64,000 nucleotides of DNA from Candidatus Babeliales bacterium (GTDB lineage Bacteria > Babelota > Babeliae > Babelales > Vermiphilaceae). Positions 3,001 to 64,000 of the stretch are shown here, piece after piece (within the stretch, counting starts at the first letter, position 1; every line of letters starts with the position of its first letter). The stretch lies in contig CAVUQO010000003.1 of the NCBI GenBank assembly GCA_963743635.1, positions 160,001 through 224,000 of the forward strand, written 5' to 3'. Below the pieces are notes generated by a model. It did no database searches. It was not told the origin of the DNA and saw only the letters and a program-made list of their open reading frames with translations. The position numbers and the translations under genes were made by a program.

Positions 3001-4250
3001 GCCGGCAGTCGCAATCAATCCATTGCCTGCAGTCACTGATCCAGAAACTGACGGGCTATTTACTAAAGTGACGCCAACAGTATTTCCCGATCCGGTGGTA
3101 GTGATATTTGATGCACCAGTAATATTAAGAACACCGGCAGATGGAACTGCAGTTCCTGAGTTTGTAGGGAATGAAGCAGGAATGGTGCCTGAAGTTTCCA
3201 AATCAAGACTGTTTGCGCCGGGTGTAAAAGTAATGGTGCTTGATGTTAAATTTGCAAACGCAGGAGCAGCGCCTGCTGCGCCGATGAGAATTTGTCCGTT
3301 GCCGCCCACACCAAGAGATGTTAAATTTCCTGCTGCATTACCAATTTGCACGGCATTGGCAGTCGTTGCTTTTGATGGTATTACACCCGTTGGACTGGCG
3401 CTCATGACGCCCGCGCTGAGTGAGTTCAATATAGTAGTTCCCGTAACATGGAGTCCGCCCGCAGTTGCAATCAATCCATTGCCTGCGGTTACTGATCCAG
3501 AAACTGATGGGCTATTTACTAAATTGACGCCAACAGTATTTCCCGATCCGGTGGTAGTTATATTTGATCCACCAGTAATATTAAGAACGCCGGCAGATGG
3601 AATTGCAGTTCCTGAATTCGTAGGAAATGAGTCAGGAATGCTGCCAGTAGTGCTGATCGTGACCATAGAGTCTGAGCCACTGGTAGTGATATTTGATCCG
3701 CCAACGATATTAATATTGGCCGCAGCAGGAAAAGCTGATCCATTATTAGTGTTGCAAAGAAAGATTGTTCTTTTTTCCGCGGCGATCTCATCGATATCAA
3801 ATTCTCGCTCAATAATCACCTGTGGATAATGTGCGTGATCAGTTTATCAAGATACGTTTGCAAGATATTGATGGTCTTATTCTCAGGATCGATTGTTTTG
3901 AGTGCTGATTGTTCAAGGAGATTAATCAATGCTGTAATGGTTACCGAAAGGAGCTCAAGCGAGTGAATGTGCTGCGCTTCCTTCAGAAAAAGCGTGAGAT
4001 CTATACGCTTATCAAGTTCTGGATATTGAGATCTGAGTGATTCAATTGCATTTTTGATGGAATCGGGAATGTAGGCAAAAGTGATCTCAGAATGTTCAAG
4101 CATGAAGATGCGATCTGCATCGGTAAGATATTTTTTTGGTGTGGCAATGTTTGCTGCAAAAGTGCTGAGTGCCGGCTCGCTCATGCCATCACAAGAGAAA
4201 ATGGCGGTTAAATAGAGAAGAGTCCATAATAATGTATTGATTTTCTTCAT
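1..4250 (-). pseudogene. Interrupted paralog of the 1539-aa fibre/adhesin gene; runs off the left edge
   Basis: ORFs 3816-4250, 2026-3819, 1367-2029 and further fragments are colinear with 4277-8896. Breaks: frameshift ~3830, GG vs GGG at ~2059, in-frame TGA at 1367-1369, more indels near 1160 and 955. Positions 1-300 match 4543-4860. May be intact in vivo (sequence errors). Confidence 0.75.
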
Positions 4251-4276
4251 GCAGTTCCCTTTTTTATAAAACTCTT

Positions 4277-7200
4277 TTAATACATTTCTACGGTTGCAGT
4301 GATGACGCCCACTCCGGTTCCACCAGTCATAAACATATTGATCCGATCGCCTCCAGCGCAGCTGACAACGTTGGTGTTATTAAGGGCGTAACCGGTAGTT
4401 CCCAGCGTAGTAGTGAGTGATGTGGCACTGCCATTTTTATATACCGTAAAGGTAGGCCCAGTAGCAGAAATAGCGGAAGTAGCTACCAAGTTTTTAAGAA
4501 CGAGCGCATGAGGAGCAGTGAGGCCTACGCCAGTGGCGTTAGTATATCCAGTTGGCGATACTGATGTGCCCGGGATCAAGAAACAACCAGCAGATGAGCC
4601 AGACGCAATTTGTCCTGTAGTGGCCCATGAAAGCAGTGATGAAGGAGAGCTGGTAAAAAAGCCAGTCGATGGCGTTGTATTATCTACCAGTTTTGTACTA
4701 TTTAAAACTATATTGCCAGTTGATGATGATGGATTAATATCATACGGAGTAGTGCCTCCGCTGCCGCTGATTGTTGAATTGTTGATGGTTGTTGTTGTTC
4801 CACCGGCAGCATTTTGCACACCATAAACCGTACTGCCTGTTCCTGATGATGCAATAATAGGAGATGCGGTAAGTGTGCATGCAGTACCGGTATTATAGAC
4901 GCCAATAGCTTGACCAGTTCCTGTTGAAGTCGCTGTAATAGAAGATGTACGTATTGTGGTCGGCGTGCTTGTATTATAAAAACCATAAACCCAACCTACA
5001 CCTGAAGTTGAGACGCTCATGGGTGATGCATCAATAGTAAATGTTCCGGCTGTATTAGAAACGCCATAGTTGGCGCCTGGTTGAGTAGTAGTAGCGTTTG
5101 TAGATGATGCCGTAATCGGCGATTCATAGACGCTGCACGCTGTACCAGCATTTGATATGCCATATACTTGGGCGGTAGTTGCTCCTGTTACACTCATGGG
5201 CGATGTATAGATATTCATAGTGCCGGCTGTATTTTGCGCTCCATAGAGAGTTCCCGTGCCTGATGAAACGGTCATATTAGATCCCGCTAGAGTAAACGTT
5301 GTGCCGCTATTAAATACACCCCATGCCAGCCCGCCGCCTGTTGTAGTAGCAGTAATGGGTGAATTGTTGATGGTGCACGTTGTTGCCGTGTTATAGACGC
5401 CATAGACGGTAGCAGTACTTGTTGAGGTAGCGCTTATGGGCGATGAGTATATGTTGACGGTTCCCGCAGTAGTGGCATTTACTGCATATGTGGTGCTGGT
5501 TGCTAATGAAGATGATGCGGTAATGGGTGAGTTGTTGATCGTTATGCTGTTGCTAGCACTTCCTGCTGGTTGGGCTATTCCGGTTACTACAACAGAACTT
5601 CCACTACTATTAGTACAGGTGACTGTAATAGGAGATGAGTTTATTGCCATTGAAGCATTGGAGATGGTATTATCAACTCCCGTTATAGTCGTGGCAGTCC
5701 CTGAGCTTGATACCGTCACCGGTGATGCATTCAGTGTGTTAACGCCGCTTTCTATGCCATATATATTTGAGGCGCCGGTTGAAGACACGTTTATTTGTGA
5801 ATTATTTACGGTTATTGTATAGCCGGTGCTAGTGCCAGGTGCTAAAATGCCCCATGCTGTTCCAGAACTCGGAGTTGATGTTGAGAGACTAATATTAGAA
5901 TTATTTATTATGGTGCTGGAGGTGGTTGCGCTGTATATAACGGCTATGCCGGCAGATGGGGGAATGGTTTGTGTCCCAGAGAGCGCAACGTTTATAGAGC
6001 AGTTGGTGATGTTAAAATTGCCAGCGCCATTACCTCCAGTTACTCCGAGATTATTATATATGCCATAGGTGATGCGCCCCAGATTAGAGGCTTGAATCGC
6101 TATGGTACAATCTTCCAATACTGATATTTCGGGCCCGGGCGTTCCTTTCGAGTTATTCAGAACACCGTAGACGTTGCCTATATTAGTTCCATTCCCGGTA
6201 ACGGTCATATTAAGATTAACCGATTTAATACGGGCGGTAGCGCTCACGGTGCCCGGCGTGCTCGTAGTACCGAGCTGTATGCCGACATCATTAGTGGGTG
6301 TTGTGTTTGTGAATGATAGATCATTGATAATTAAATTCACATTTTCAAGGCGGGAATAATCTGTCATAGTGACCAGTGTAATCCCGTTTGGATTGTTTGG
6401 TGATTGAATGGTAACTCCCGAAGTGCCGACATTGGTGCCGATGGTTCCGCCAGAAGTAACGGTTGATCCGGCGCCTTCTGAAAGCCCAATAAGACTGACG
6501 TATGATGGTATTGTTATGCCGGCGGCGAGAATATAAACGCCTGGCATAACCCAAATAACTACGGGAGTGGAACTTGTTGCTACTGCGCTTGCAGCAGTTA
6601 TAGCAGCGCCGATTGTTAGAAATGGTGCGCCATTTATAGCTCCCGTACTATCATTTCCATTCACCGCATCAACACGCGCAACGTTACCAAGAACGGGATA
6701 CGCTCTGACACTTAATGATCCAGCGCCAGTTGCATACACGATAGAATTATCCGGGGATGTGAGGTATGCAAAAACCGGATTGGCGCCTGTTGAGCCGAGC
6801 AAGACTTGTCCATTATTGCCAACAGCAAGAGAGCTTAAAGTTCCCGAACTGTTACCGACTTGCACGGCGAAAGGAGTTGTTGTTTGTGATGATACCACGC
6901 CCGTTGCGTTGGTGCTCATGACGCCAGTGCCGAGTGAGTTCAGTATAGTAGTGCCCGTAACATTGAGTCCGCCGGCAGTTGCAATCAATCCATTGCTTGC
7001 AGTGATGGTGTTGGATGCATTGATGGTGCCCGTGACATTGAGATTACCAAACATATTCAAATTGCCGGTCATATTGAGATTGCCGGTTAAGTTCAGATTG
7101 CCGGTCATGTTGAGATTACCGGTCATATTGAGATTGCCAATTGAGCTGATGCCGCCGGCATTTACCGTTAATCCGCCCGCAGTTGCAATCAATCCATCGC

Positions 7201-8896
7201 CTGCAGTAACCGATCCAGAAACTGATGGGCTATTTACTAAATTGACGCCAACGGTGTTTCCCGATCCGGTGGTAGTTATATTGGAGCCACCGGTAATATT
7301 AAGAACACCGGCAGATGGAACTGCAGTTCCTGAACTCGTAGGAAATGAGTCAGGAATAGAGCCCGCAGTTTCTAAATCAAGACTGTTTGCACCGGGCGTG
7401 AAAGCAATGGTGTTGCCGGTAGAAGTGAGTGTAGCAAACGCAGGATTAGCGCCTGTTGCGCCGATGAGAACTTGCCCGTTACCGCCAACGGCAATTGAGG
7501 TTAAATTTCCTGCTGCATTACCAATTTGCACGGCATTGGCAGTCGTTGCTTTTGATGATACCACGCCCGTTGCACTGGTACTCATGATGCCGGTACCGAG
7601 TGAATTCAGTATAGTAGTCCCCGTAACATTGAGCCCGCCGGCAGTTGCAATCAATCCATTGCCTGCAGTCACTGATCCAGAAACTGATGGGCTATTTACT
7701 AAATTAACGCCAACAGTATTTCCCGATCCGGTGGTGGTGATATTTGATCCACCAGTAATATTAAGAACACCGGCAGATGGAACTGCAGTTCCTGAGTTTG
7801 TAGGGAATGAAGCAGGAATGGTGCCTGAAGTTTCCAAATCAAGACTGTTTGCGCCGGGTGTGAAAGTAATGGTATTGCCGGTAGAAGTGAGTGAAGCAAA
7901 TGCGGGTGCAGCACCCGTTGCGCCGATGAGAACTTGTCCATTATTACCAACACCAAGAGATGTTAAATTTCCTGCCGCATTACCAATTTGCACGGCATTG
8001 GCAGTCGTTGCTTTTGATGATACCACCCCCGTTGCATTGGTACTCATGATGCCGGTGCCGAGTGAGTTCAGTATAGTAGTACCCGTAACGTTGAGTCCGC
8101 TCGCGGTTGCAATCAATCCATTGCCTGCAGTCACTGATCCAGAAACTGATGGGCTATTTACTAAATTGACGCCAACGGTATTTCCCGATCCGGTGGTAGT
8201 TATATTTGATCCACCAGTAATATTAAGAACGCCGGCAGATGGAATTGCAGTTCCTGAATTCGTAGGAAATGAGTCAGGAATGGTGCCTGCAGTGTTGATC
8301 GTGACCGTAGAGTCTGACCCACTGGTAGTGATATTTGATCCGCCGACGATATTAATATTGGCCGCAGCAGGAAAAGCTGATCCATTATTAGTGTTGTAGA
8401 GAAAGATTGTTCTTTTTTCCGCGGCGATCTCATCGATATCAAATTCTCGCTCAATAATCACCTGCGAATCATGTGCGATCAGTTTATCAAGATACGTTTG
8501 CAAGATATCGATTGTTTTATTTTCCGGATCAATTGTTTTGAGTTCTGATTCTGCAAGAAGTTCAATCAATGCCGCTATCGTTGCGCTGAGAACATTAAAT
8601 GAGTGGACGTGCCGCGTAGTCTGCAGAAAGAGCGTGAGATCTATGCGAGTGTCAAGTTCAGGATATTGAGATCTGAGTGATTCAATGGCCTTTTTGATGG
8701 TATCGGGAATGTAGGCAAAGTGGACATCGGCGTTTTCACGCATAAAAATGCGATCTGCATCGGAAATATATTTTTTTGATGTGGAAATAGTTGCTGCAAA
8801 AGTGCTGAGTGTAGACTCGCTATTGCTATCGAACGAGCAAAAGGTTCCTAAAAATATGAATATCAATAACAATAATAATGTACATTTTTTCATCAA
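4277..8896 (-). CDS. Exported fibre/adhesin: signal peptide, pro-domain, ~154-aa tail-fibre-like repeats, GNLNMT hexapeptides, beta-helix-like head, C-terminal beta-rich domain
   Basis: 1539-aa ORF with AAGGAA RBS; FPTxSGTAxP repeats; VDAVNGNDSTG...PFLTIGAA motif typical of the start of pectin-lyase-like beta-helices; Gly/Ser/Thr rich. Confidence 0.85.
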   Translation of the reverse strand: MMKKCTLLLLLIFIFLGTFCSFDSNSESTLSTFAATISTSKKYISDADRIFMRENADVHFAYIPDTIKKAIESLRSQYPELDTRIDLTLFLQTTRHVHSFNVLSATIAALIELLAESELKTIDPENKTIDILQTYLDKLIAHDSQVIIEREFDIDEIAAEKRTIFLYNTNNGSAFPAAANINIVGGSNITTSGSDSTVTINTAGTIPDSFPTNSGTAIPSAGVLNITGGSNITTTGSGNTVGVNLVNSPSVSGSVTAGNGLIATASGLNVTGTTILNSLGTGIMSTNATGVVSSKATTANAVQIGNAAGNLTSLGVGNNGQVLIGATGAAPAFASLTSTGNTITFTPGANSLDLETSGTIPASFPTNSGTAVPSAGVLNITGGSNITTTGSGNTVGVNLVNSPSVSGSVTAGNGLIATAGGLNVTGTTILNSLGTGIMSTSATGVVSSKATTANAVQIGNAAGNLTSIAVGGNGQVLIGATGANPAFATLTSTGNTIAFTPGANSLDLETAGSIPDSFPTSSGTAVPSAGVLNITGGSNITTTGSGNTVGVNLVNSPSVSGSVTAGDGLIATAGGLTVNAGGISSIGNLNMTGNLNMTGNLNLTGNLNMTGNLNMFGNLNVTGTINASNTITASNGLIATAGGLNVTGTTILNSLGTGVMSTNATGVVSSQTTTPFAVQVGNSSGTLSSLAVGNNGQVLLGSTGANPVFAYLTSPDNSIVYATGAGSLSVRAYPVLGNVARVDAVNGNDSTGAINGAPFLTIGAAITAASAVATSSTPVVIWVMPGVYILAAGITIPSYVSLIGLSEGAGSTVTSGGTIGTNVGTSGVTIQSPNNPNGITLVTMTDYSRLENVNLIINDLSFTNTTPTNDVGIQLGTTSTPGTVSATARIKSVNLNMTVTGNGTNIGNVYGVLNNSKGTPGPEISVLEDCTIAIQASNLGRITYGIYNNLGVTGGNGAGNFNITNCSINVALSGTQTIPPSAGIAVIYSATTSSTIINNSNISLSTSTPSSGTAWGILAPGTSTGYTITVNNSQINVSSTGASNIYGIESGVNTLNASPVTVSSSGTATTITGVDNTISNASMAINSSPITVTCTNSSGSSVVVTGIAQPAGSASNSITINNSPITASSSLATSTTYAVNATTAGTVNIYSSPISATSTSTATVYGVYNTATTCTINNSPITATTTGGGLAWGVFNSGTTFTLAGSNMTVSSGTGTLYGAQNTAGTMNIYTSPMSVTGATTAQVYGISNAGTACSVYESPITASSTNATTTQPGANYGVSNTAGTFTIDASPMSVSTSGVGWVYGFYNTSTPTTIRTSSITATSTGTGQAIGVYNTGTACTLTASPIIASSGTGSTVYGVQNAAGGTTTTINNSTISGSGGTTPYDINPSSSTGNIVLNSTKLVDNTTPSTGFFTSSPSSLLSWATTGQIASGSSAGCFLIPGTSVSPTGYTNATGVGLTAPHALVLKNLVATSAISATGPTFTVYKNGSATSLTTTLGTTGYALNNTNVVSCAGGDRINMFMTGGTGVGVITATVEMY
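6720..8290 (-). repeat. Intragenic ~462-bp tandem repeats (3 units, the third interrupted by 18-bp GNLNMT repeats); same layout at ~2090-3640
   Basis: Near-identical DNA blocks recur at ~8266, ~7804, ~7342 and ~3624, ~3168, ~2706. Confidence 0.9.
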
Positions 8897-8914
8897 CCGT
8901 TCCTTTTTTAATTC

Positions 8915-8939
8915 TTTTTAAGAACGTAACAATTTTATG
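8915..8939 (-). promoter_or_regulatory. Putative extended -10 promoter of the fibre gene; exact copy at 25520-25544
   Basis: Minus strand CATAAAATTGTTACGTTCTTAAAAA (TGnTACGTT); related AATTGTTATATTGAAAAA upstream of the 15514 gene. Confidence 0.5.
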
Positions 8940-9194
8940 CTCTATTTGCCCAGTTTTTTGATATGTTCCATGATTTTTGCATACTACAATAAAAATAAAT
9001 GCGGCACAATATTAGCCATTAGTGCCTGTATTATCTGTTCTTCTTGCTTTTTGCATCGAGCGTTGCGGCTCAGAAGAGACAAGCTCAATCTTAAATATAA
9101 AACTCATCATTGCTCTTCACGAGTTGCTTTGTTATATAGTATTCAAGTTTAATCCAAACATGTACGTACTATGTTTTAAAAAAGGAGCAATCGC

Positions 9195-9836
9195 ATGATG
9201 AAGCAAAGAATATCTCTCGGCAGCTTAATAATGGCCATAATATTGAGTAATACTTTGTATGGCGCTGGCGCAGTGAGTTCAGCAAATTCCACTATAGACT
9301 TCCCTCATGATCAGGCATACATCAATACGAACTATCCCACTATTATTGGCACACTGCGTGATGATAATGGCAATCCGGTTACGAGTGAAACGGTGCAAAT
9401 TATACTCGATGGTTATTCCATTGGCAGTGCAACATCAGATGGAAATGGTATCTATCGATTTCCCGTATCGCAGGCATTGCCCGATGGACAATATCAACTT
9501 TCAATCTTTTGCGTAGAATCCCAAGTAATTATAGAATCCAATCAATTTAATATTGATACCATCGCGCCTTCTATCACCATCACCTATCCGCAAGATGGTC
9601 AAGCCATCACCACCAATTCCGTACTCTTTGCGGGTACTACTGAACAAAATGCAATGGTTATGGTTTTTGTTGACGCAGATATGTTTGGCAACATATGTTA
9701 TGCCGATGAAAATGGAAACTGGTCTATTGAGTATGAGTTAGAGAATGGTAATCACACGATTGCAGCACAAGCAACTGATATAGCGGGCAATCAGGGATAT
9801 ATGTCTGATGTAATCAATTTTTCAGTGAATTATTAA
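9195..9836 (+). CDS. Exported Ig-like domain protein (2 domains)
   Basis: AAGGAG RBS, signal peptide, DTIAPSITITYP and ATDIAGN motifs of bacterial Ig-like repeats. Confidence 0.85.
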   Translation: MMKQRISLGSLIMAIILSNTLYGAGAVSSANSTIDFPHDQAYINTNYPTIIGTLRDDNGNPVTSETVQIILDGYSIGSATSDGNGIYRFPVSQALPDGQYQLSIFCVESQVIIESNQFNIDTIAPSITITYPQDGQAITTNSVLFAGTTEQNAMVMVFVDADMFGNICYADENGNWSIEYELENGNHTIAAQATDIAGNQGYMSDVINFSVNY

Positions 9837-9837
9837 T

Positions 9838-9957
9838 CCGCCGCCACTTCGATGGCGCACGGCCACGCCGAAATGCAATGGAGGTGGGTGATAAATCCGC
9901 CGTCGCACATAGTGCTATGGCGCGATAAATCCTCCGCCTGCCTCGACGTAAGAAGGT
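9838..9957. repeat. GC-rich palindromic intergenic element (second REP-like type)
   Basis: Imperfect hairpins CCACGCCGAAATGCAATGGAGGTGG and CCGCCGTCGCACATAGTGCTATGGCG, each followed by GATAAATCC. Confidence 0.45.
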
Positions 9958-10032
9958 CGCGTTAAAAAGGAAAGGGATGTGTATCTCACTAATTCGTTTG
10001 TACTTATCATTGTTCAATAAAAGGAACTTTTT

Positions 10033-10998
10033 ATGTTTATAAAAAATAATATCTCAAAAATAGTTGCATTATCGCTCATTGCATCAACGATTCATGCGGT
10101 ATCGCTTGATCCTCTTTTTTCATTTGTTGCCTCTCCACGTTTGCACGATACGATCGTGGTGCGTGGACCAGTGGTAATGGGCGTGGTTACTGATACGAGT
10201 GGCAAGCCAGTAAGAAATAAATTAGTAACGGTTTACGTTGATAAACGTAAAGTGGCGGTGGTGCCAACTAATAATCATGGTGTATGGTCATATACCCTGA
10301 ATCAAGCGCAATATCTGCAAGACAGTGCGCATATGGTGGAAGCGTGCGTAACGTTGTCTGCAACAAATATGGTGTGGACGCAGGCAACAATGTTTACGGT
10401 GCAAGCATCGCGGCAAGCTACGCATAGATCTGGCAATGTAAATGTTGCTAATTCTGTAATCAATTTCCCATTTGGGTACGTCAATACGACGACTCCAATT
10501 ATAGTCGGCAGTTTGTTAGATGCGGGATATAACCCAGTGGGTAGTGAAACAGTTAACGTACAAATAAATGGCGTTACCGTTGGAACGGTTACTTCTGATA
10601 GCAATGGCGTATTCTCATATCCGGTTGCCACCGCGTTAGCTGAAGGTAATTACACGGTCGGAGCACAGTGCGTGCAATCTGCAGTTGATTTAACGATCAA
10701 TGATTTCACGGTTGATATAACGCCACCCGTTGCACCAATCATAACCTATCCTGCTCAAAATAGTACGCTTACAACCACTGATGTGATAATTACCGGGGTT
10801 ACTGAGCCAAATGCAACGGTTACGATTTATCTCGATGGTAATACCTTTGGTGATATCAGTTATGCAGATGGATATGGTAACTGGTCTATGGAATATATCT
10901 TAAATGATGGGTTCCATTCGGTGAATGCGCAAGCAACTGACTTGGCGAATAATACTGGTCCAGTATGCACTACCATCAATTTTAACGTGAATGCGTGA
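10033..10998 (+). CDS. Exported Ig-like domain protein (3 domains)
   Basis: AAGGA RBS, signal peptide; paralog of 9195 and 11360 genes. Confidence 0.85.
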   Translation: MFIKNNISKIVALSLIASTIHAVSLDPLFSFVASPRLHDTIVVRGPVVMGVVTDTSGKPVRNKLVTVYVDKRKVAVVPTNNHGVWSYTLNQAQYLQDSAHMVEACVTLSATNMVWTQATMFTVQASRQATHRSGNVNVANSVINFPFGYVNTTTPIIVGSLLDAGYNPVGSETVNVQINGVTVGTVTSDSNGVFSYPVATALAEGNYTVGAQCVQSAVDLTINDFTVDITPPVAPIITYPAQNSTLTTTDVIITGVTEPNATVTIYLDGNTFGDISYADGYGNWSMEYILNDGFHSVNAQATDLANNTGPVCTTINFNVNA

Positions 10999-11096
10999 AG
11001 AGAAAGAAAAGAGCATATTAAGAAGCGCTGTTATGAGATAAGGTGAATTAAAATTGAACCTATTTTTTTTTTACGATAAAATACAAAACTTTTTCC

Positions 11097-11270
11097 CCGT
11101 TCGCCCTGAGTGTTTTTCATTGCCACGCTTGCGAGGAATGAAAAATGTGCCGAATGGGTTAGGGGTAAAAGGGCTTTGGATTTTATTATAAATAACAGTC
11201 ATAATTTGATTCCGTATCACCCATTCGATACATTTCGATCCATGCGGATCGAAACACTCAGGGCGAACGG
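11097..11270. repeat. Inverted REP-like pair (arms 11097-11158 and 11220-11270) with different hairpins inside each arm
   Basis: CCGTTCGCCCTGAGTG-[hairpin]-TGTGCCGAATGGG and its reverse-complement counterpart. Confidence 0.85.
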
Positions 11271-11359
11271 AGACGACAATCTCTTTGGGCGAATATTGCT
11301 TTCTGGATCAATTGAATAAGAAACGATATATCAGAATGTTTTTAATAATAAGGAAATTC

Positions 11360-12340
11360 ATGGTTATAAAAAATACGCTCCTCAGAATGATGACTGCCCT
11401 CTCAATGCTTACACCAATGATGTACGCCAATCCTCTTGATCCGCTCAACTCATTGGTTGCATCACCCGCTCTGAATGATACCATTGTGGTGCAAGGCCCG
11501 TTGGTCATTGGTATCGTAAATGATATTTATGGCAAGGCGGTAAAAAACAAAAGAGTTGTTGTATACCTTAATAAGCGCAAGGTTGGCGTAGTTTACACCA
11601 ACAAATATGGCGTGTGGTCTTATATACTTAATAGCGGACAATCTTTACAAGACGGCACGTATATTGTGCAAGCATATGTTCAGCTTGCTGCGGGCAATAA
11701 TGTGTGGACGCAAGCAACCTTATTTAACGTGCAGGCATCACGCACTCCAACTCCAGTGAGATTGGGTGTTGTCAATGCTGCTAATTCTGCAATTAATTTC
11801 CCATACGAAGGCGCGTATATCAATACCTCAACACCAACTATTGTGGGCAGCTTAGTTGATTCTAACTACAATGCAGTTGTTGGCGAAACGGTGAATATTA
11901 GTATCAATAGCGTGAATATTGCGACTGTTACTTCTGATAGCAATGGCGTATTCTCCTATCAAGTGAGCGCTACCTTAGATGATGGTAATTACACCGTTGG
12001 TGCACATTGCGTGCAATCTGACGTCAATTTAACCACCAATGATTTTGTTATCCTCACCGTGCCGCCTGCTGCTCCCGTGGTTACATTCCCGAGCGAATAT
12101 TATGTGGTGGATAATAGTACGGTGATTGTAACTGGTACTACTGAATCATATGCAACGATCACCACGTTTATGGATGGTGATACATTCGGCGTAGTATGTT
12201 ATGCGGATCAATATGGCAACTGGTCTAATGAATATGATGGCCTTGCAAATGGTTCACATTCAGTGACGGCACAAGCATCTGATCTGGCAGGCAATACCGG
12301 CCCGGTATCAGGAGCAACGGATTTTAGCGTGAGTGCATAA
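11360..12340 (+). CDS. Exported Ig-like domain protein (3 domains)
   Basis: Start reassigned to ATG 11360 after AAGGA; full-length paralog of 10033-10998. Confidence 0.85.
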   Translation: MVIKNTLLRMMTALSMLTPMMYANPLDPLNSLVASPALNDTIVVQGPLVIGIVNDIYGKAVKNKRVVVYLNKRKVGVVYTNKYGVWSYILNSGQSLQDGTYIVQAYVQLAAGNNVWTQATLFNVQASRTPTPVRLGVVNAANSAINFPYEGAYINTSTPTIVGSLVDSNYNAVVGETVNISINSVNIATVTSDSNGVFSYQVSATLDDGNYTVGAHCVQSDVNLTTNDFVILTVPPAAPVVTFPSEYYVVDNSTVIVTGTTESYATITTFMDGDTFGVVCYADQYGNWSNEYDGLANGSHSVTAQASDLAGNTGPVSGATDFSVSA

Positions 12341-12353
12341 TTCTCTAGATAAT

Positions 12354-12394
12354 AAAAAGGCGGGAGCGAAGTGTAATACTTCGCTTCCGCTTAT
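12354..12394. terminator. Hairpin between convergent genes, probably bidirectional terminator
   Basis: AAGGCGGGAGCGAAGT-gtaat-ACTTCGCTTCCGCTT. Confidence 0.75.
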
Positions 12395-12412
12395 CTTATT
12401 AATGTAGGCGGG

Positions 12413-13297
12413 TTATTGTAACGCTGTTGCAGTGAAATGTACGGTCTGAGTGCCACTACTAAATGCAATGCTGACCGCAGTAGGAGTTACTGATGCAATA
12501 GTCACCGTAGATGATCCTGATGATCGTTGCCCTGTAGCAATCACCGATGGAGATACTGAGAAGCTCGGAATAAAGTTGATAATCATTGTTGAACCAGAAA
12601 CTATATACGTATATCCCGATCCGCTGCCTGATCCTGAAGTTGGTATATATCCATCAATGACGCGAATTTGAGATTTTCCGGTAGGCAGTATAAGCGGTAA
12701 GTTAGCGTTGATATCAATGATAGCACTTGAAGGATAACCTGTTTCTTGTAGTACAGCTTCTAAAGTATGGATGCCATTCGCATTAATAGGGCATAGGATT
12801 TGCCAATTGCCGCTTGCATCACTTGTGGCAGTTCCTACGACTGCATCATCAAGTAATAATTCTACGGTGGTTGAAGGCGCGGTAGATACACCGGTGACCA
12901 TGATGAGGTTGGTCATTATATCATCACCATCTGCAGGATCCGTTATCGCTATGGTATCTGTATTTTGCACGGTGAAAGAGACCGTAGTTGTCGCAAGAGT
13001 GCGATAATCAGTATCAATGAGATTTGCGGTCAGCGTGTAATCTCCATTCATGAGTGCTGCTATGGTAAAACTCCAATTGCCATAACTATCAGTGGTAACA
13101 CTTCCTATATAGGTATCATTGATAGTTAATTGAACTTGAGCATCATCTACGGATGATACGCCGTTTATGGCAAGAGGGTCGCCACTTACCTTAGCCGTAT
13201 TTGCGGGATTATTAATGGCAATGACGTTGATAGCGCTGAGCGTGACTGTGCTAAAAAATGTGCATGCCATGGTTAAAAGGAGTATCGTTTTTTTCAT
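12413..13297 (-). CDS. Exported protein with two Ig-like domains and a small C-terminal beta domain (phage-tail/lectin-like)
   Basis: MKKTILLL signal peptide; GNW Ig motifs; INFIPSFSVSPSVIAT pattern. Confidence 0.75.
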   Translation of the reverse strand: MKKTILLLTMACTFFSTVTLSAINVIAINNPANTAKVSGDPLAINGVSSVDDAQVQLTINDTYIGSVTTDSYGNWSFTIAALMNGDYTLTANLIDTDYRTLATTTVSFTVQNTDTIAITDPADGDDIMTNLIMVTGVSTAPSTTVELLLDDAVVGTATSDASGNWQILCPINANGIHTLEAVLQETGYPSSAIIDINANLPLILPTGKSQIRVIDGYIPTSGSGSGSGYTYIVSGSTMIINFIPSFSVSPSVIATGQRSSGSSTVTIASVTPTAVSIAFSSGTQTVHFTATALQ

Positions 13298-13333
13298 AGT
13301 TAAATTCCTCATTCTATTTTCGTTAACGGTTAT

Positions 13334-15514
13334 TTAATATACTTCTGCAGTTACTGCAATGTCAGATGCCCCGACTGTGCCGGTAACTATTTGTAATGTC
13401 AGAGTATTGCCGGCAACACAAGAGACGCTTACATTAGAAGCAGTCGAATTAGCACTGTTATTGCCACTTGCTAGGGAGACGGTCAATCCTGTAGCTATGC
13501 CATTTTTCAGCAAGGTAAAGGTAGTTCCGGCAGCGCCTGCGGCTGTTGCTGACTGTGCATACATATTTTTAATGATACATGGCTGTGTCGCAACATAAGG
13601 GATAGAAGTTACGAGCGTTGCTTGTGTTGCTGCAGTACCAGGAGTCATGTAGGCAGTTCCAACTGCTGGTGTGGTATTAGTTGCCCATGTGATGGTCGAT
13701 GCAGGCCCAGTAGAGGTAAATCCGAATGAGTTTGCATTGGAATTTACGAGATTCGAATTTGATACTATTAGAGTACCAGCCGATTGGGCAATATCTGCCG
13801 TGGGGTTTCCGCTTACTGTTGAAGAACTTATGATGCATGATGCGCCTGCAAGATTGGTTTGCACACCGATGGCACTACCGCCGCCAGAATTTGTTACCGT
13901 AATACTGCTGGTGCGTATATTGAAGGTATTCACGGCAGTATCAACAATAACGCCTCGGGCAACTTGTGTGCCTGAAGTGCTCACGGTTACCGTTGAATCT
14001 TGTAGCGCAAATAAATTGGTTCCAGCGTTACCAGTACCAATGGAATGAATGCCATACGTATTGCCTCCGGCATTTCCCGTATTGGTAACGTTGAGGTTAA
14101 CCATGCTCACAGTAGAAGTTTGAGATGTAGTGTCAAGAAATACGATCCCTCGCAGTTGCACGTTTGATCCCGCATTGGATGTAAGATTTAGGGTGACATT
14201 TGAGAGGCGTGAACTTTCGCCCATAGTTACTAAATCTGTATTGGCGGTTACATTGGTTTGTTGGATTCGAACACCGCTTGAGTTATAACCACCCGAAGTG
14301 ATTCCAGCTACGCTCACCGCATTTTTGATAACAACGGCTTCATTGTACGTTCCCGGGAATATCCATATCGTGGTTCCCGAAACTGCAACAGCCATAGCCG
14401 CAGCAATAGTGGCAAAAGGAGCGCCATTAAGAGCGCCGGTAGCATCGTTGCCATATACTGCATCAACGCGCGCTATGTTGCCAAAAACCGGTACTGATTG
14501 GAGGTTAAGTGTTCCAGCTCCTGGCGTAAAAATAATAGAATTATTCGTTGATGTCAGCGCATTAAATACAGGTGGATTGCCGGTGGAGCCTATCAGTACT
14601 TGACCATTGGTACCAGGAGCTGAAGCTAGAATGCCTGTGCTGGTAGAAGTGAGTGCGCCTGCGGTGAACGGAAATTTGATAGCGCCTGCACTAACCGTAA
14701 GCCCATTGCCTGCAGTTATGGATCCATCTACGGCGAGTGAACCAGGAATTACTACATTGTTATCTAAATTTATAGTGACGGTTTGCCCTGAGCCACTGGT
14801 ATTAATATTTGATCCGCCAACAATATCAAGCACTCCTGCAACAGGAATTGCAGTTCCCGCATCGGTCACAAAGCTTTGGTTGCTGCCAGCACTTCCTGAT
14901 TGGCCATTGATTGTGCCCGCTACGGTTAAATTGCCACAAATCGTTGCATTGCACGATACGTTGAGAGAGCCAGTGGTTAAATTATCAATAACCCATAGAT
15001 TACAGAATTTTTTACAACGTCGGCCACGAACTTGGGTTGTTTGCTCTTCTTCTAATTCTTTTAATTCTCCCAAGGTAATATGCGCATTGCCATTTTGAAG
15101 AATGCCTAGATAGTGCTCAATAATGTGTAATGAGTTATCTTCTGGATGATTTTTCTTAACATCGGCAGCAGTAAGAAGGTTAAGTAACTGCAGGCTAATG
15201 TTTTCTACTGCTTTTGTTGGTGCAACGTGCACATTCTCATCGAGAAAGAGTGATAGATCTATGAGTTCAGCGAGGTCAGTATAGTTGATTTTTAGTAATT
15301 TAACGGTTGTTTTTAGAGCCGCGGGGATGTATACAAAATCAGTTTCGGGATTTTGTGTAAGAAGTTTAGTATCTTGCTCGGATAGAAAAGTTTCAACGGC
15401 AGGCAACTCCTCGATGCCGATTTCATTGATATGCTCCTCCGATTGATTTGCATATGATGGTAGGTATATGATAATTCCCATACATAATAACATCAATAAT
15501 AAAGTTTTTTTCAT
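13334..15514 (-). CDS. Exported fibre/adhesin paralog: pro-domain, RGRRCKKFCNL motif, one fibre repeat, beta-helix-like head
   Basis: AGGAG RBS; FVYIP..LK...IDLSLF pro-domain; FVTDAGTAIP repeat; VDAVYGNDATG; ends AEVY like VEMY of the 4277 gene. Confidence 0.85.
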   Translation of the reverse strand: MKKTLLLMLLCMGIIIYLPSYANQSEEHINEIGIEELPAVETFLSEQDTKLLTQNPETDFVYIPAALKTTVKLLKINYTDLAELIDLSLFLDENVHVAPTKAVENISLQLLNLLTAADVKKNHPEDNSLHIIEHYLGILQNGNAHITLGELKELEEEQTTQVRGRRCKKFCNLWVIDNLTTGSLNVSCNATICGNLTVAGTINGQSGSAGSNQSFVTDAGTAIPVAGVLDIVGGSNINTSGSGQTVTINLDNNVVIPGSLAVDGSITAGNGLTVSAGAIKFPFTAGALTSTSTGILASAPGTNGQVLIGSTGNPPVFNALTSTNNSIIFTPGAGTLNLQSVPVFGNIARVDAVYGNDATGALNGAPFATIAAAMAVAVSGTTIWIFPGTYNEAVVIKNAVSVAGITSGGYNSSGVRIQQTNVTANTDLVTMGESSRLSNVTLNLTSNAGSNVQLRGIVFLDTTSQTSTVSMVNLNVTNTGNAGGNTYGIHSIGTGNAGTNLFALQDSTVTVSTSGTQVARGVIVDTAVNTFNIRTSSITVTNSGGGSAIGVQTNLAGASCIISSSTVSGNPTADIAQSAGTLIVSNSNLVNSNANSFGFTSTGPASTITWATNTTPAVGTAYMTPGTAATQATLVTSIPYVATQPCIIKNMYAQSATAAGAAGTTFTLLKNGIATGLTVSLASGNNSANSTASNVSVSCVAGNTLTLQIVTGTVGASDIAVTAEVY

Positions 15515-15759
15515 ACACCACTCCTTTTTTTTTAATATTTTTTTTCAATATAACAATTACCTGATCTCATTCCTAGAAAAATCATCGATGACCTGATTGT
15601 ATTAATAAAGACGATGTTATTGCAATAGGTGACACAGCAAAAGGGGCGTTTGTGCCCGTGCTAATTCTTTCTCTTTTTTAAAATCACTCAATGCATTATG
15701 CAGCAGTAGCGAGTGCATGCATAAGATGTTAAACAAGAACATATTTTTTTTGATGTCAC

Positions 15760-17349
15760 TTATAATGCCCCATAGAGTTCAAACGTTCCGCCAGTGATAT
15801 TTCCCGAGCTGAAGAATAATTGAAAGGCGTTGCATCCGGCGGTGGCGACATAGCCTCCAACGAATACTGATGACACCCCAGGATTAGTTATACGTAAATA
15901 GGTAGATCTCCCATAAAAGGCTGGATAAATAGTTTGAGAGGCGCCTATATTGCTCAATAGCATTTCGCCGCTACAGGCATAATGAGCCACGTTAAGAACC
16001 GAATAGGCAAGCAATAAAGAACTTCCATTACTGGTACCGATACTTGCAACGTCACTATAAGAGTCTGAAGTTGCAAAAAGAGAAACCCCATAATATCCCG
16101 TAGACACCCACGAGGTTCCGTTATTCGTTGAGCATTGTAATTGAATGCTTGCCCCAGATGTGGGAGGAAGCATGTTGTACCATTTGATTTGAAAGCTCGT
16201 ATAACCTGTCGGTAGATTGATAAAGGTAACTGCTGAAACGTTACTCACCGTTTGCGTTGATAGTAATCGATATGGATTTGAATTATCGGCATATGCTGTG
16301 GTGGCCAATTTTGTAGAATCATCATTAGCGCTTTGAGTGCTAGCCGTTGCAGTTCCGGTAATTGCTATGCCGTTTGTGCTGCCGGTAAGTACTATATTGC
16401 CAGTTCCTGCTTGTATGGTTGTGAGGCTTGAAGTATTCGTGGAGCCGAGCGTGGCTGTTTTTGCGCCGTTGCCAGTAGTAATGGAAATGGTAGAGGAGGA
16501 AGCATCAGTAGAAACGTTTAAAGCATTAGTGCCTGAGTTGAGCGTGATAGTTCCGCCAGAGATAGAAGAATTTCCGGTAGCATTAATGCCGCCAGTAGTT
16601 GCAATGAGTCCGGTGCCAGCTGTTACTGATCCAGAAACTGAGGGACTATTATTCAGATTTACTGTTACGGTTGACCCTGACCCACTGGTATTTACGTTGG
16701 ACCCCCCATGTATAGTTAATGCACCACTCGATGGTGTTGCAGTTCCAGAATCGGTTGGAAATGAGGTTGAGACAGAGCCACTCAGTCCGATAGTGATGGT
16801 TGAATCTGCGCCGGTGGTAGTGATATTTGATCCGCCAACGATATTAATATTCGCGGCAGTAGGAAATGCCGATCCGCTATTGGTGTTGAATAAAAATACC
16901 GTTCTTTTGCCGTCATGAATATCATCCTCATCAATGCATACCTGTATCGCTCCTGATTCAACGGCACGCGCATACTGCTCTAAATCGGCGAACATTTTAG
17001 GGGCGGGGCATTTTGCATTGGCAAGAGCGGTAAGAAGTTGTTCTATAGATGATAGTACATATTCTTGCGGGACAATATGAGTATCTTGATCAATGAATAA
17101 TGATAGATCGATAAAAGTATTAATTTCTGGGTGCAGCGCATTTAACATTCTGATGGTTGCTTTGATATCTTCAGAAAGGTACGTAAAATCTACCGTGGGA
17201 TTATTGATTACTCGGTCATAATCCTGTGCGGATATCACATAGCATGGCGCGTGAGTATCTATCATCGTTGGAGATACATCCTGATGAGCAGCTAAGGGAG
17301 AAGCTCCAAGGCAGGCATTCAATATTATGAAAATGAGCAATAATATCAT
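15760..17349 (-). CDS. Exported fibre paralog with phage tail-fibre-like C-terminal head
   Basis: Start reassigned to ATG 17349 (AGGAAG RBS); TQSANDDSTKLATTAY; ends GNITGGTFELYGAL. Confidence 0.85.
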   Translation of the reverse strand: MILLLIFIILNACLGASPLAAHQDVSPTMIDTHAPCYVISAQDYDRVINNPTVDFTYLSEDIKATIRMLNALHPEINTFIDLSLFIDQDTHIVPQEYVLSSIEQLLTALANAKCPAPKMFADLEQYARAVESGAIQVCIDEDDIHDGKRTVFLFNTNSGSAFPTAANINIVGGSNITTTGADSTITIGLSGSVSTSFPTDSGTATPSSGALTIHGGSNVNTSGSGSTVTVNLNNSPSVSGSVTAGTGLIATTGGINATGNSSISGGTITLNSGTNALNVSTDASSSTISITTGNGAKTATLGSTNTSSLTTIQAGTGNIVLTGSTNGIAITGTATASTQSANDDSTKLATTAYADNSNPYRLLSTQTVSNVSAVTFINLPTGYTSFQIKWYNMLPPTSGASIQLQCSTNNGTSWVSTGYYGVSLFATSDSYSDVASIGTSNGSSLLLAYSVLNVAHYACSGEMLLSNIGASQTIYPAFYGRSTYLRITNPGVSSVFVGGYVATAGCNAFQLFFSSGNITGGTFELYGAL

Positions 17350-17365
17350 TTGTTTCTTCCTATAA

Positions 17366-18595
17366 TTATAAAACCGCATAGAGCTCAAAGGTTCCGCTGG
17401 TGATATTTCCCGAACTAAAAAGTAACTGGAAGGCATTGCATCCAGTAGCGGCTACATAACCGCCAGTGAGTGCTACGCCAACTAATGGTGTGTTTGAGTC
17501 TAGATAGGTAACTATGCCATAAAAAGCTGGATAAATAGTTTGAGAGGTTCCTATATTGCTCAGTAGCAGTTCACCACAACAGGTATAACCTGCTACGGTG
17601 TTAATGATAGCTTGTGTAAGAGTTACGGAAGATGTATTAGAAGAGGCTATAGTGTTACCACTACCTGCTGAAGTATTGTAAAAAAAGGATCCATAATATC
17701 CGGTTGTTATCAACCCGCCACTATTAGATAATTGTATCTCAAGGGATGAGCCTGATGTGGCAGGAACTACGTTGTACCACCTGATTTTAAATTTCGAATA
17801 TCCTGAAGGTAGACTGTTAAAAGTAACTGCTGTGACGTTACTCACCGTTTGCGTTGATAGTAATCGATATGGATTGGAATTATCCGCATATGCGGTGGTA
17901 GCCAATTTTGTAGAATCATCATTAGCACTTTGGGTGGTAGCCGTTGCAGTTCCGTTGAATGCTATGCCGTTTGTGCTGCCGGTACATACGATGCTTGCAG
18001 TTCCTGCTTGTATGGTTGTGGAGCTTGAAGTATTGGTGGAACCGAGCGTAGTGGTTTTTGTAGCATTGCCGGTTGCGATATTAACGGTAGTAGTAGCACT
18101 ATCGGTAGAAACGTTTAAAGCATTTGAGCCGGGGTTAAGCGTGATAGTTCCGCCAGAGATAGAAGAATTTCCGGTAGCATTAATGCCGCCAGTAGTTGCA
18201 ATGAGTCCGGTGCCAGCCGTTACTGATCCAGAAACTGAGGGACTATTATTCAGATTTACCGTTACGGTTGACCCTGACCCGCTGGTATTTATGTTGGATC
18301 CCCCATGTATCGTTAATGCATTATTAGAAGGCGTTGCAGTTCCAGAATCAGTTGGGAATGAGGTTGAGATAAGGCCAGTAGCTGCAATAGTGATGGTTGA
18401 GTCTGCGCCCGTGGTAGTGACATTTGATCCGCCAGCGATATTAATATTCGCGGCAGCAGGAAATGCCGATCCGCTATTGGTATTGTAGAGTAAGATTGTT
18501 CTTTTGCATTCACTCAGATTATCCTGATCATTTGCAGCTAACGGAGCAGCGTTAAAACAGGCATTCAATATCATGAAAATGAGTAAGGATATCAT
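17366..18595 (-). CDS. Exported fibre paralog lacking the pro-domain
   Basis: Start reassigned to ATG 18595; signal peptide joins directly to DQDNLSECKR; same stalk/head as neighbours. Confidence 0.85.
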   Translation of the reverse strand: MISLLIFMILNACFNAAPLAANDQDNLSECKRTILLYNTNSGSAFPAAANINIAGGSNVTTTGADSTITIAATGLISTSFPTDSGTATPSNNALTIHGGSNINTSGSGSTVTVNLNNSPSVSGSVTAGTGLIATTGGINATGNSSISGGTITLNPGSNALNVSTDSATTTVNIATGNATKTTTLGSTNTSSSTTIQAGTASIVCTGSTNGIAFNGTATATTQSANDDSTKLATTAYADNSNPYRLLSTQTVSNVTAVTFNSLPSGYSKFKIRWYNVVPATSGSSLEIQLSNSGGLITTGYYGSFFYNTSAGSGNTIASSNTSSVTLTQAIINTVAGYTCCGELLLSNIGTSQTIYPAFYGIVTYLDSNTPLVGVALTGGYVAATGCNAFQLLFSSGNITSGTFELYAVL

Positions 18596-18611
18596 TTGTT
18601 TCTTCCTATAA

Positions 18612-20168
18612 TTACAATACCGCATAAAGCTCAAAGGTTCCGCTGGCAATATTTCCCGAACTAAAGAACAAATGGAAGGCATTGCATCCCGCAGTGTTTA
18701 CCGATCCGCCGGACATTGAATTCAATGTTTTAGTAGTAGTCGTATTATTATATAAAGAGGTAGATCTTCCGTAGCAATTAGGATAAATAGTTTGAGAAGC
18801 TCCTATATTGGTAAATAGTATTTCGCCGCTACTGGAATAATTAGTTAAGACAATAACGGCTTGTGATATTGCTAAGGAACTTGCGTTATTTGAGACGGTA
18901 GTGCTAAAAGTTCCTGCTGAATTACTAAAAAAGTCAATCCCATAATATCCTGATCCTATCCAAGAAGAACCATTGTTATTTGACCATTGTAATTGAATGT
19001 TTGACCCTGATGTGGCAGGAACCACATTGTACCATCTAACCAGAAATTTCGTGTATGCCGTCGGTAGATTGATAAAGGTAACTGCTGAAACGTTACTCAC
19101 CGTTTGCGTTGACAGTAAACGATATGGATTTGAGTTATCGATGTATGCGGTAGTAGCCAATTTCGTAGAATCATCATTAGCGCTTTGCGTGGTAGCTGTT
19201 GCAGTTCCGGTAATTGCTATGCCGTTTGTGCTGCCGGTAAGTACTATATTGCCAGTTCCTGCTTGTATGCTTGTGATGCTTGAAGTATTGGTGGAGCCGA
19301 ACGTAGTTGTTTTTGCAGCATTGCCAGTTGCTATGCTAACCGTGGTATTAGCACTATCGGTAGAAACGTTTAAAGCATTAGTGCCGGAATTGAGTGTGAT
19401 AGTTCCCCCAGAGATAGAAGAATTTCCGGTAGCATTAATGCCGCCAGTAGTAGCAATGAGCCCCGTTCCTGCCGTGAAGGATCCAGAGACGGATGGGCTA
19501 TTATTTAGATTTACCGTTACGATTGCTCCGGTACCGCTGGTATTCATGTTGGATCCGCCATGAATGGTCAATGCATCATTCGATGGAGTTGCAGTTCCAG
19601 AATCAGTTGAAAATGAGGTTGAGACAGAGCCGCTCATTCCGATAGTGATGGTTGATCCTGCGCCGGTGGCAGTGATATTTGATCCGCCAACGATATTAAT
19701 ATTCGCGGCAGCAGAAAATGCCGATCCATTATTGGTGTTATAGAGAAAGATTGTTCTTTTGCCGTCACTCAGATTGTCTTGATCGATATGGACTTGTACC
19801 GTTTGCGCTTGAAGTTCCTGCGCATATTGTTTTAAATCAGTAAGCAGTTTAGTTGCAGGATATTCTGCATTGGCAAGCGTTGCCAGCAGTTGTTCTAAAA
19901 ATGTTAGCAAGGTATCTCGCGGGGTAATATGCGTATCTTGATCAATCAACCATGTTAGATCGATAAGAGAATCGATTTCTGGGTATTGGGCTTTAAACAT
20001 TCTGAGTGCTGTTTTGATATCTTCCGGAATGTACGCAAAATCTACTGCAGGATTATTAATAACAAGATCATAATCCTGCCCAGAAATCATGGCATGAAGG
20101 TTTTGCTGATGCATCGAAAGTAAGAAAATAAATGCGATTAACGCTATTTTTTTCACGGCAATCTTCAT
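18612..20168 (-). CDS. Exported fibre paralog with phage tail-fibre-like head
   Basis: Signal peptide, FAYIPEDIK pro-domain, DGKR-TIFLYNTN, ends GNIASGTFELYAVL. Confidence 0.85.
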   Translation of the reverse strand: MKIAVKKIALIAFIFLLSMHQQNLHAMISGQDYDLVINNPAVDFAYIPEDIKTALRMFKAQYPEIDSLIDLTWLIDQDTHITPRDTLLTFLEQLLATLANAEYPATKLLTDLKQYAQELQAQTVQVHIDQDNLSDGKRTIFLYNTNNGSAFSAAANINIVGGSNITATGAGSTITIGMSGSVSTSFSTDSGTATPSNDALTIHGGSNMNTSGTGAIVTVNLNNSPSVSGSFTAGTGLIATTGGINATGNSSISGGTITLNSGTNALNVSTDSANTTVSIATGNAAKTTTFGSTNTSSITSIQAGTGNIVLTGSTNGIAITGTATATTQSANDDSTKLATTAYIDNSNPYRLLSTQTVSNVSAVTFINLPTAYTKFLVRWYNVVPATSGSNIQLQWSNNNGSSWIGSGYYGIDFFSNSAGTFSTTVSNNASSLAISQAVIVLTNYSSSGEILFTNIGASQTIYPNCYGRSTSLYNNTTTTKTLNSMSGGSVNTAGCNAFHLFFSSGNIASGTFELYAVL

Positions 20169-27384: not shown

Positions 27385-27489
27385 GATTAAAATCCTTTTG
27401 TGTTTTTTCAAAAAACACGTGGTTATACCTGGGGTTCATGCTATTTTAATGGGGTTATTTGTCAAACCGGTTTTTTTAAAAAAGGAATC

Positions 27490-30934: not shown

Positions 30935-30962
30935 ATTTGTGCTCCAGGATGATTGCAAAAAA

Positions 30963-31184
30963 TTACTTTTGAAGTGCACCAACATATAAACCATTCCACC
31001 AATTTTCTCTATCAGCTCCTATGCCGGGTAAAATTTCCTCAACTCCCTGGGATAGGGTTGATTTAAGGCTGAGTGCGTTTTGAATGCTTTTTTTTACATG
31101 GTCAATAAGCATTTGAGTATCAAATGCATGCAGGGGAGCAGTAAGAAAATAGAAAGAAAGAATAAGTTTTTTTGAATAATGCAT
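30963..31184 (-). pseudogene. Short exported ORF, probably an internally deleted enzyme gene
   Basis: Good RBS and signal peptide, then HVKKSIQNA joined almost directly to WWNGLYVGALQK. Confidence 0.4.
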
Positions 31185-58968: not shown

Positions 58969-59153
58969 ATCGTACCCTATGAGTTATCCAAAAAGGTATT
59001 AAAAATCGTATCTTTTTCTTTTTTTAGACTACTATAATTCGGAAGAAAAGCAACGTGAGGCAGGCGGGTACGGTTGCCGAGAGCCTCTGAAGATGTAATA
59101 CTAAAGTGCAATAAGTCGATAACCAAGCTATCAAGCGGATGTGGGGTATCATA

Positions 59154-61552: not shown

Positions 61553-61674
61553 GCATGGCCCTTTAGAATACGTATTTTGAGACATACATTATCTCATAAG
61601 AGAATGTAACATCTATCGATTTATTGCAATAAAGGATCTAAGATTTCGTAATCTTGATGATCGCATTAGGTACT

Positions 61675-62354: not shown

Positions 62355-64000
<1,646 letters not shown>

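Follow-up and report, generated by a model that had tools for sequence, protein, structure and literature searches.

Tail-fibre-like and immunoglobulin-like surface proteins with a conserved Arg/Lys at a domain boundary, encoded by a Candidatus Babeliales gene cluster

The DNA analysed here is a window of 64 kilobases (kb) from a Candidatus Babeliales bacterium (contig CAVUQO010000003.1), and all coordinates are positions within this window. Its first part (1-20168) holds six genes for tail-fibre-like proteins (fibres A to F), all on the minus strand, together with four genes for immunoglobulin (Ig)-like proteins. The cluster encodes secreted surface proteins of these two families, each of which has a conserved Arg or Lys at a domain boundary. 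In the fibres, this boundary separates an N-terminal domain, here called the N-module, from the shaft; in the long Ig-like proteins, it separates the first of three domains from the other two. A first-pass annotation had ascribed the pattern to one Arg-specific protease that would release a common mature N-terminus in both families. The reading favoured here is a different one, in which the N-module would be the base of a surface fibre and the basic junction an assembly collar.

Fibre and Ig-like genes of the cluster

The six fibre genes and their junction sites are listed below, with a hyphen at the proposed boundary.

1..4250, minus strand: fibre B, a broken copy of fibre A in at least four open reading frame (ORF) pieces (3816-4250, 2026-3819, 1367-2029 and 1-813), running off the window; site AEKR-TIFL at 3757-3780.
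4277..8896, minus strand: fibre A, 1539 amino acids, with N-module, site AEKR-TIFL at 8399-8422, three long shaft repeats and a pectate-lyase-like beta-helix region.
13334..15514, minus strand: fibre C (P0091), 726 amino acids, with N-module and a Cys-type basic collar QVRGRRCKK-FCNLWV; site QVR-GRRCKK-FCNLW at 14993-15028.
15760..17349, minus strand: fibre D (P0002), 529 amino acids, with N-module; site DGKR-TVFL at 16891-16914.
17366..18595, minus strand: fibre E (P0003), 409 amino acids, whose signal peptide is D-like and passes directly into an F-like linker, NDQDNLSECKR-TILLY; site ECKR-TILL at 18488-18511.
18612..20168, minus strand: fibre F (P0001), 518 amino acids, with signal peptide, N-module (residues about 30-128, window 19785-20081), acidic linker DQDNLSDG, K137-R138, shaft repeats and C-terminal head; site DGKR-TIFL at 19743-19766.

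The Ig-like genes lie between fibres A and C; the first three form the Ig trio, and the fourth is absent from the first-pass annotation.

9195..9836, plus strand: Ig short, 213 amino acids, two-domain, with a signal peptide that ends in ...LYG and is followed by AGAVSSANSTIDFP; site LYG-AGAVSS at 9255-9281.
10033..10998, plus strand: Ig long 1 (P0049), 321 amino acids, three-domain, with R132 after a variable linker of five residues; site THR-SGNV at 10420-10440.
11285..12340, plus strand: Ig long 2, three-domain; linker site PVR-LGVV at 11753-11773.
12413..13312, minus strand: a fourth Ig-like protein, 299 amino acids, with a signal peptide that ends in ...TLSA and a domain that starts with INVIAINNP.

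All nine sites quoted in the first-pass annotation are present in the translated ORFs where it had placed them. The true start of Ig long 2 probably lies near 11360, because the database form of this protein (P0070) has 326 residues.

The fibre sites line up in alignments, and the junction DNA of fibres A, B, D, E and F belongs to a single repeat family (D4, 180 nucleotides, 75-95% nucleotide identity). The six fibre sites therefore represent about two independent cases in this genome, the A/B/D/E/F copies and fibre C. That the site recurs beyond chance is upheld by relatives on other contigs, in which the basic residue is kept, but not by the length of the list itself, which contains fewer independent cases than entries. 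For fibre C, the boundary had been placed at QVR-GRRC; in the profile alignment it is KK-FCNLW that occupies the columns of KR-TIFL, although family members of the branch with Cys also have the upstream R-G.

The shafts of fibres A and B (4277-8896 and 2026-3819) contain three tandem units of about 460 nucleotides (154 amino acids) with 70-96% identity (families D1-D3), and a run of the hexapeptide repeat NLNMTG follows downstream of these units. No Pfam family was found in the full-length fibres, the exception being a DUF1565/pectate-lyase-like stretch in a piece of fibre B (1367-2029), which matches DUF1565 and Pect-lyase_RHGA_epim.

The fibre N-module and its junction

Four fibres of the window and four metagenomic relatives provided the N-terminal stretches (170-205 residues) for a profile (A3). 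The profile matches 75 representative clusters at E <= 1e-3, of which 28 are at E <= 1e-10, and the match is N-terminal in all 75 representative hits, in proteins of 100 to 4787 amino acids. Fibres A, C, D and F and the N-terminal piece of fibre B match it with E values of 1e-37 to 1e-79. In the window fibres the module follows the signal peptide and is itself followed by an acidic linker and then a basic collar. Fibre E matches only profile positions 149-193: the whole N-module is absent in frame, and the junction is kept. Its sequence is consistent with an in-frame deletion, so that fibre E may be seen as a natural N-module deletion.

The module precedes a variety of passengers. Among 53 relatives searched against Pfam, Collagen is present in 14, Peptidase_S74 in 5, BclA_C in 4, K1-lyase_C in 3, DUF1565 in 3, H_lectin in 1 and DUF6991 in 1 (below cut-off), while 27 have no family; precomputed Pfam results add Peptidase_S74 in P0013. 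Passenger families of the Collagen, BclA_C and Peptidase_S74 type form trimers. Conversely, shaft homologues without the N-module (P0006 and P0007) start with MPYKYNPFTG, have no signal peptide and are phage-fibre-like, and the N-module therefore stands in for the particle-attachment end.

In an AlphaFold2 model of fibre F residues 1-230, residues 30-128 form an alpha/beta domain of about 100 residues, with six helices and three short strands and a predicted local distance difference test (pLDDT) score above 90. K137-R138 end a coil (129-139, DQDNLSDGKR, pLDDT ~65), after which comes a strand (140-144, TIFLY). Confidence is low downstream of the junction, as expected when a single chain of a trimer is folded alone. 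The N-module has no match in Pfam, NCBIfam or PHROGs, and a profile search of PDB sequences gave only E > 0.2; with its model, Foldseek returned 0 hits at E <= 0.001 in PDB and BFVD. As judged from these five collections, it is a portable, undescribed domain. A match in the ESM Atlas (best score 0.83) was discarded, since shuffled proteins reach that level a third of the time. One pattern scan for the fibre N-module and one for the Ig trio found no relative of either in 185,579 species-representative genomes.

To describe the junction, the 56 hits were used whose hmmsearch alignment spans both N-module and junction, hits ending before the junction being absent; three rows without an upstream N-module were dropped, and the window's fibre A and B pieces are outside the set. 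The first junction residue, J1, is K in 35 hits, T in 8 and R in 4. Upstream, D or E stands at positions -10, -8, -7 and -6 in 27-37 of 55 hits (28/47 at -10), and at -9 in 5/47. Downstream of J1, Cys is found at +3 in 26/55, Asn at +4 in 33/55 and Leu at +5 in 40/53. In collagen-type members, Cys-rich basic knots lie ahead of the first Gly-X-Y repeat. Profile positions 164-191 recur along the shafts, and what follows K-R in the window fibres is accordingly a first, degenerate shaft repeat.

Because the alignment was fitted to a profile that itself holds K-R, a recount free of columns was made. With J2 denoting the last residue ahead of the first shaft strand, 28 of the 56 junctions have a dibasic pair in the 14-residue stretch up to and including J2, compared with 2.5% of 31,371 background windows from the same proteins, and the mean number of K and R per window is 2.8 at the junction and 0.52 in the background. 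Arg occurs in the 11 residues ending one past J2 in 48/56, compared with 18% of windows in the same proteins, and R followed by G, S, T or A in 30/56, compared with 5.5%. The profile columns had pointed to Lys rather than Arg as the conserved residue, a candidate overturned by the 48 junctions with Arg nearby.

The conservation of a basic residue does not extend to a strict specificity for Arg, as had been proposed for the fibres: J2 is non-basic in 30 of 54 hits, K in 10 and R in 14. The furin motif R-x-[KR]-R occurs in 1/56 junctions, that of fibre C only. A kexin-type K-R is present at the boundary of fibres A, B, D, E and F.

The long Ig-like proteins and the neighbouring genes

The two long Ig-like proteins are paralogous (58% identity). 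When long 1 was used as query, 41 three-domain forms of about 320 amino acids were retrieved, the window's two included. At the column of R132, 38 of these have R, two K and one T; S133 is S in 38/41, and G134 is invariant. The five linker columns before R132 are variable, with a mean majority fraction of 0.31, compared with 0.93 for R132 itself; the corresponding means are 0.64 for Ig domain 1 and 0.76 and 0.72 for domains 2 and 3. In the AlphaFold2 model of long 1 (three beta-sandwich domains, mean pLDDT 90.0, predicted template modelling score (pTM) 0.81), R132 lies in a coil (128-137) between strands 119-127 and 142-145, in a block with pLDDT ~77. The model suggests a fixed rod of three Ig domains rather than a loosely tethered propeptide.

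A search with the short form gave 29 two-domain forms of 209-265 amino acids, 24 of them of 211-214. In 29/29 the hydrophobic leader ends, mostly in ...[YH]G, at the Arg column and is followed by A-G-x-V, the signal peptidase site having been judged by eye with the -1/-3 rule. In the window, a MAFFT alignment places G23/A24 of the short protein against R132/S133 of long 1, which agrees with the earlier observation that the mature start of the short protein coincides with the Arg of the longer ones. The R-S pair is thus particular to the long forms (38/41 for each residue), the short forms having G or another small residue, then A, in the same columns. The conserved Arg is a hinge residue specific to the long forms, and it fits a cleavage site and a contact for the packing of domain 1 equally.

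Short and long forms lie on seemingly shared contigs in at least 12 cases, the contigs being matched by size only; the trio thus seems to be conserved as a set of genes. On a contig of 464,192 nucleotides, a fibre homologue (P0004) appears to occur together with a homologue of the short Ig form (P0174). Scores of 57.4, 45.0, 58.4 and 34.6 bits against Big_13 (cut-off 27) were obtained for the Ig-like proteins, which have further Pfam matches to Big_6, Big_7, Invasin_D3 and similar families. Against NF033510 (Ca_tandemer, cut-off 50 bits), Ig short scores 51.0, long 1 52.9 and long 2 64.0.

Two predictions of the first-pass annotation are borne out by these results. The basic residue is conserved in homologues, with R or K in 40/41 Ig forms and Arg in 48/56 fibre junctions, and the models of Ig long 1 and fibre F place it in a non-regular segment between folded parts. 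As judged by sequence conservation, selection maintains a genuine basic boundary in the fibres and in the Ig-like proteins alike.

Among the window ORFs scanned, no peptidase family reached its cut-off, and no gingipain or clostripain family was found; the protease called for by the first-pass annotation thus does not appear within the 64 kb, which are part of a contig of at least 818,594 nucleotides. The scans covered sets of 12, 35, 25, 9 and 7 window proteins against family libraries. The only protease-related names lay far below cut-off: PLN_propep scored 25.2 bits (cut-off 28.1) over 12 residues of a low-complexity protein, and the PorU type IX secretion system (T9SS) sortase 19.3 bits (cut-off 420) on an Ig-like stretch. 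Many window ORFs have no Pfam or NCBIfam match. The low K/R content of the shafts was considered as an adaptation to a basic-specific protease and rejected: the 41 shaft homologues without the module are equally poor (medians 1.0% R and 1.1% K), so that the property is uninformative on a protease.

Elsewhere, the window contains ordinary cellular genes, namely ftsA, ftsZ, secA, hisS, bamD and pilB/gspE. ftsZ is split (35888-36826 and 36715-37218) by a frame change inside FtsZ_C, with profile positions 1-42 and 52-95 on the two pieces, and the pilB/gspE ATPase is split (59139-59819 and 59780-60859) between T2SSE positions 36 and 39. These splits are due either to indel errors in the assembly or to decay of the genes; in either case, fibre B may not truly be broken, and its breaks may be assembly errors. 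Near the fibre cluster, two GT47/RXYLT1-like glycosyltransferases, which are eukaryote-like, and an FkbM-type methyltransferase are encoded (25567-27411, 28296-30011 and 30008-30994), and these enzymes may glycosylate the Ser/Thr-rich fibres. A protein of 978 amino acids (22467-25403) has an N-terminal thioredoxin domain and then a long low-complexity region with a strong A-over-T skew; this protein may conceivably be connected with the Cys-rich collars seen in the fibre family. Scans of the whole window for tRNA, tmRNA and Rfam families gave no hit.

Fibre base, alternatives and comparison with known systems

The favoured reading, to which a probability of roughly 45% is given, makes the N-module the base that targets or anchors the fibre, and the acidic-basic(-Cys) junction an assembly collar. 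In this reading, the locus encodes Sec-exported surface fibres built like phage tail fibres, and a conserved tandem-Ig set. The signal peptide of a fibre is followed by the N-module (about 100 residues), then by an acidic linker (about 5-10 residues), a short basic collar and the first shaft repeat; the collar often has Cys in relatives, and only K-R is left of it in fibres A, B, D, E and F. The N-module would target or anchor the trimer at the cell envelope, corresponding to the N-terminal domain of BclA and to the N-terminus by which phage fibres attach to the virion, and the collar would be the point where the three chains enter register. In the long Ig-like proteins, the Arg marks the hinge between an extra N-terminal domain and a two-domain core, and the short paralogue makes this core directly after its signal peptide. 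Such a reading is favoured because the module is folded, portable and N-terminal, where phage fibres hold their attachment end; because the conserved motif continues past the basic residues into Cys-Asn-Leu; and because a cut would part the fibre from its sole common module.

Several observations weigh against it. A strongly enriched basic cluster at the end of a low-confidence acidic coil resembles a processing site. R-S occurs only in the long Ig forms, and the signal peptide of the short forms ends at the same columns; since the short forms carry small residues there, the Arg is unneeded for the fold of domain 2. No anchoring partner was found. Finally, fibre E, which has no N-module, still has an intact reading frame.

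Cleavage by a protease at the fibre junction is somewhat doubtful, and cleavage of the long Ig-like proteins at the Arg rather unlikely. The most far-reaching form of the idea is that of the first-pass annotation, in which one Arg/Lys-specific protease, bacterial or host, cuts both families, so that the fibres lose their N-module, the long Ig-like proteins lose domain 1 and a common type of mature N-terminus is left. It would account for a conserved basic residue in both families, for a small residue after it in both (S in 38/41 long Ig forms; T, S, A or G in many fibres), for the position of both sites in coil segments of lower pLDDT, and for the leaders of the short forms, all 29 of which end at the column of the R|S bond. 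The apparent occurrence of the Ig trio with a fibre homologue in another genome (P0004, P0174) points the same way, and there is a precedent in type V pilins, which, according to PMC5954841, are cut by Arg-gingipain after lipoprotein export. However, the two sites are alike only in being basic and then small: the recognition context assumed to be shared is an acidic run and then a basic, often Cys-containing cluster in the fibres, and a variable linker and then RSGNV in the Ig-like proteins. Moreover, all fibre sites but that of C derive from copies of one DNA segment, J2 is basic in only 24/54, Ig domain 1 is conserved like a working domain, all protease-like names in the window fall far below cut-off, shafts without the N-module are K/R-poor too, and the hallmarks of type V pilins are missing. 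A single shared protease is thus quite improbable. Unlikely as well is processing of the fibres alone, in which the fibre is freed or activated either during export or by an envelope protease with dibasic or basic specificity, and the Ig Arg is a structural hinge that contacts domain 1. The twentyfold enrichment of dibasic pairs, the acidic low-confidence linker and the confident arrangement of the Ig domains (pTM 0.81) agree with it, and so does BclA, for which PMC3850424 couples N-terminal cleavage with attachment; against it stand the lack of a protease in the window, the conservation of Cys, Asn and Leu beyond the basic residues, which indicates a structural motif, and the detachment of the fibre from its only conserved non-passenger module. 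Since BclA joins attachment with N-terminal cleavage, anchoring and cleavage are not exclusive.

It is also conceivable, though very improbable, that the Ig trio are subunits of a previously unseen pilus-like polymer outside Bacteroidota, with the fibres as tips or companions and the same basic-specific protease freeing them from an N-module that acts as chaperone or targeting domain. Cleavage at the Arg of the long forms, or removal of the signal peptide of the short form, would then free the segment (S/A)GxVxxANSxINFP with its alternating hydrophobic residues, and this segment, or the groove left, would drive subunit joining in the manner of Rgp cleavage in type V pili. That the whole pattern is meaningless, a product of paralogy within the genome and of chance Arg near domain boundaries, is scarcely credible: the copying of five of the six fibre sites from one DNA segment and the paralogy of the two long Ig-like proteins would suit it, but it is contradicted by the basic residue in 40/41 Ig forms and by Arg in 48/56 fibres against 18%, across many contigs.

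If the junction is a true processing site, it would define a step by which a whole class of secreted trimeric fibres matures in an uncultured lineage. The N-module is of value even if no cleavage occurs: it marks tail-fibre-, collagen- and tailspike-like proteins as cell-surface fibres and not phage parts, which should help in annotation and in the study of host attachment by such bacteria. The source lineage is probably eukaryote-associated and of small genome. Two eukaryote-type C2H2 zinc-finger proteins are encoded at 60863-61585 and 62471-64000 (PF00096, E = 4e-26 for the second), which is unusual in a bacterium and typical of host-associated lineages.

Among known systems, the window fibres resemble phage tail fibres and tailspikes in that their shaft repeats and heads have phage-fibre-like homologues; the head of fibre D matches phrog_14820 (E = 4e-6). 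The likeness extends to phage fibres with a C-terminal intramolecular chaperone (PF13884), as Peptidase_S74 ends 5/53 N-module relatives and also P0013. In contrast to phage fibres, the window fibres have a Sec signal peptide and an N-module instead of a virion-attachment end, no Peptidase_S74 (PF13884) was found by Pfam in any of them, and they lie amid the cellular genes ftsA, ftsZ, secA and hisS.

BclA of the Bacillus exosporium is likewise a trimeric fibre with an N-terminal attachment part, and relatives of the N-module carry Collagen and BclA_C. A 19-residue N-terminal peptide of BclA is removed upon attachment, according to PMC3850424. The N-terminal domain of BclA, however, has about 20-40 residues and no Sec signal, whereas here a folded module of about 100 residues follows a signal peptide. 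In addition, the source bacterium encodes BamD, an outer-membrane assembly factor, and the window fibres have neither Gly-X-Y collagen repeats nor a BclA_C head by Pfam, unlike those relatives that match Collagen (14/53) or BclA_C (4/53).

The type V pilins (FimA/Mfa1) of Bacteroidota share with the long Ig-like proteins a conserved Arg before the mature part of a secreted beta-sandwich surface protein, and Rgp cleavage at this Arg permits polymerisation, as stated in PMC5954841. The membership of the Ig-like proteins in this class, proposed earlier, is not supported. The signal peptides of the trio contain no Cys, so that these proteins are not lipoproteins, and most of the 29 short homologues also lack a lipobox; the family matches are to Big_13, Big_6 and Ca_tandemer and not to FimA/Mfa families; and no gingipain-like gene was found in the window.

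The Ig-like proteins resemble Ca2+-stabilised tandem-Ig adhesins. By Foldseek, the model of long 1 matches SiiE (2yn5, E = 8e-12) and the repeats of ice-binding adhesins (4p99; MpIBP region II), and NF033510 is above cut-off throughout the trio. SiiE/MpIBP-type adhesins are not known to have a conserved R-S hinge. The window proteins further differ from these giant repeat adhesins in being small, with two or three domains, and in forming a conserved set of three genes.

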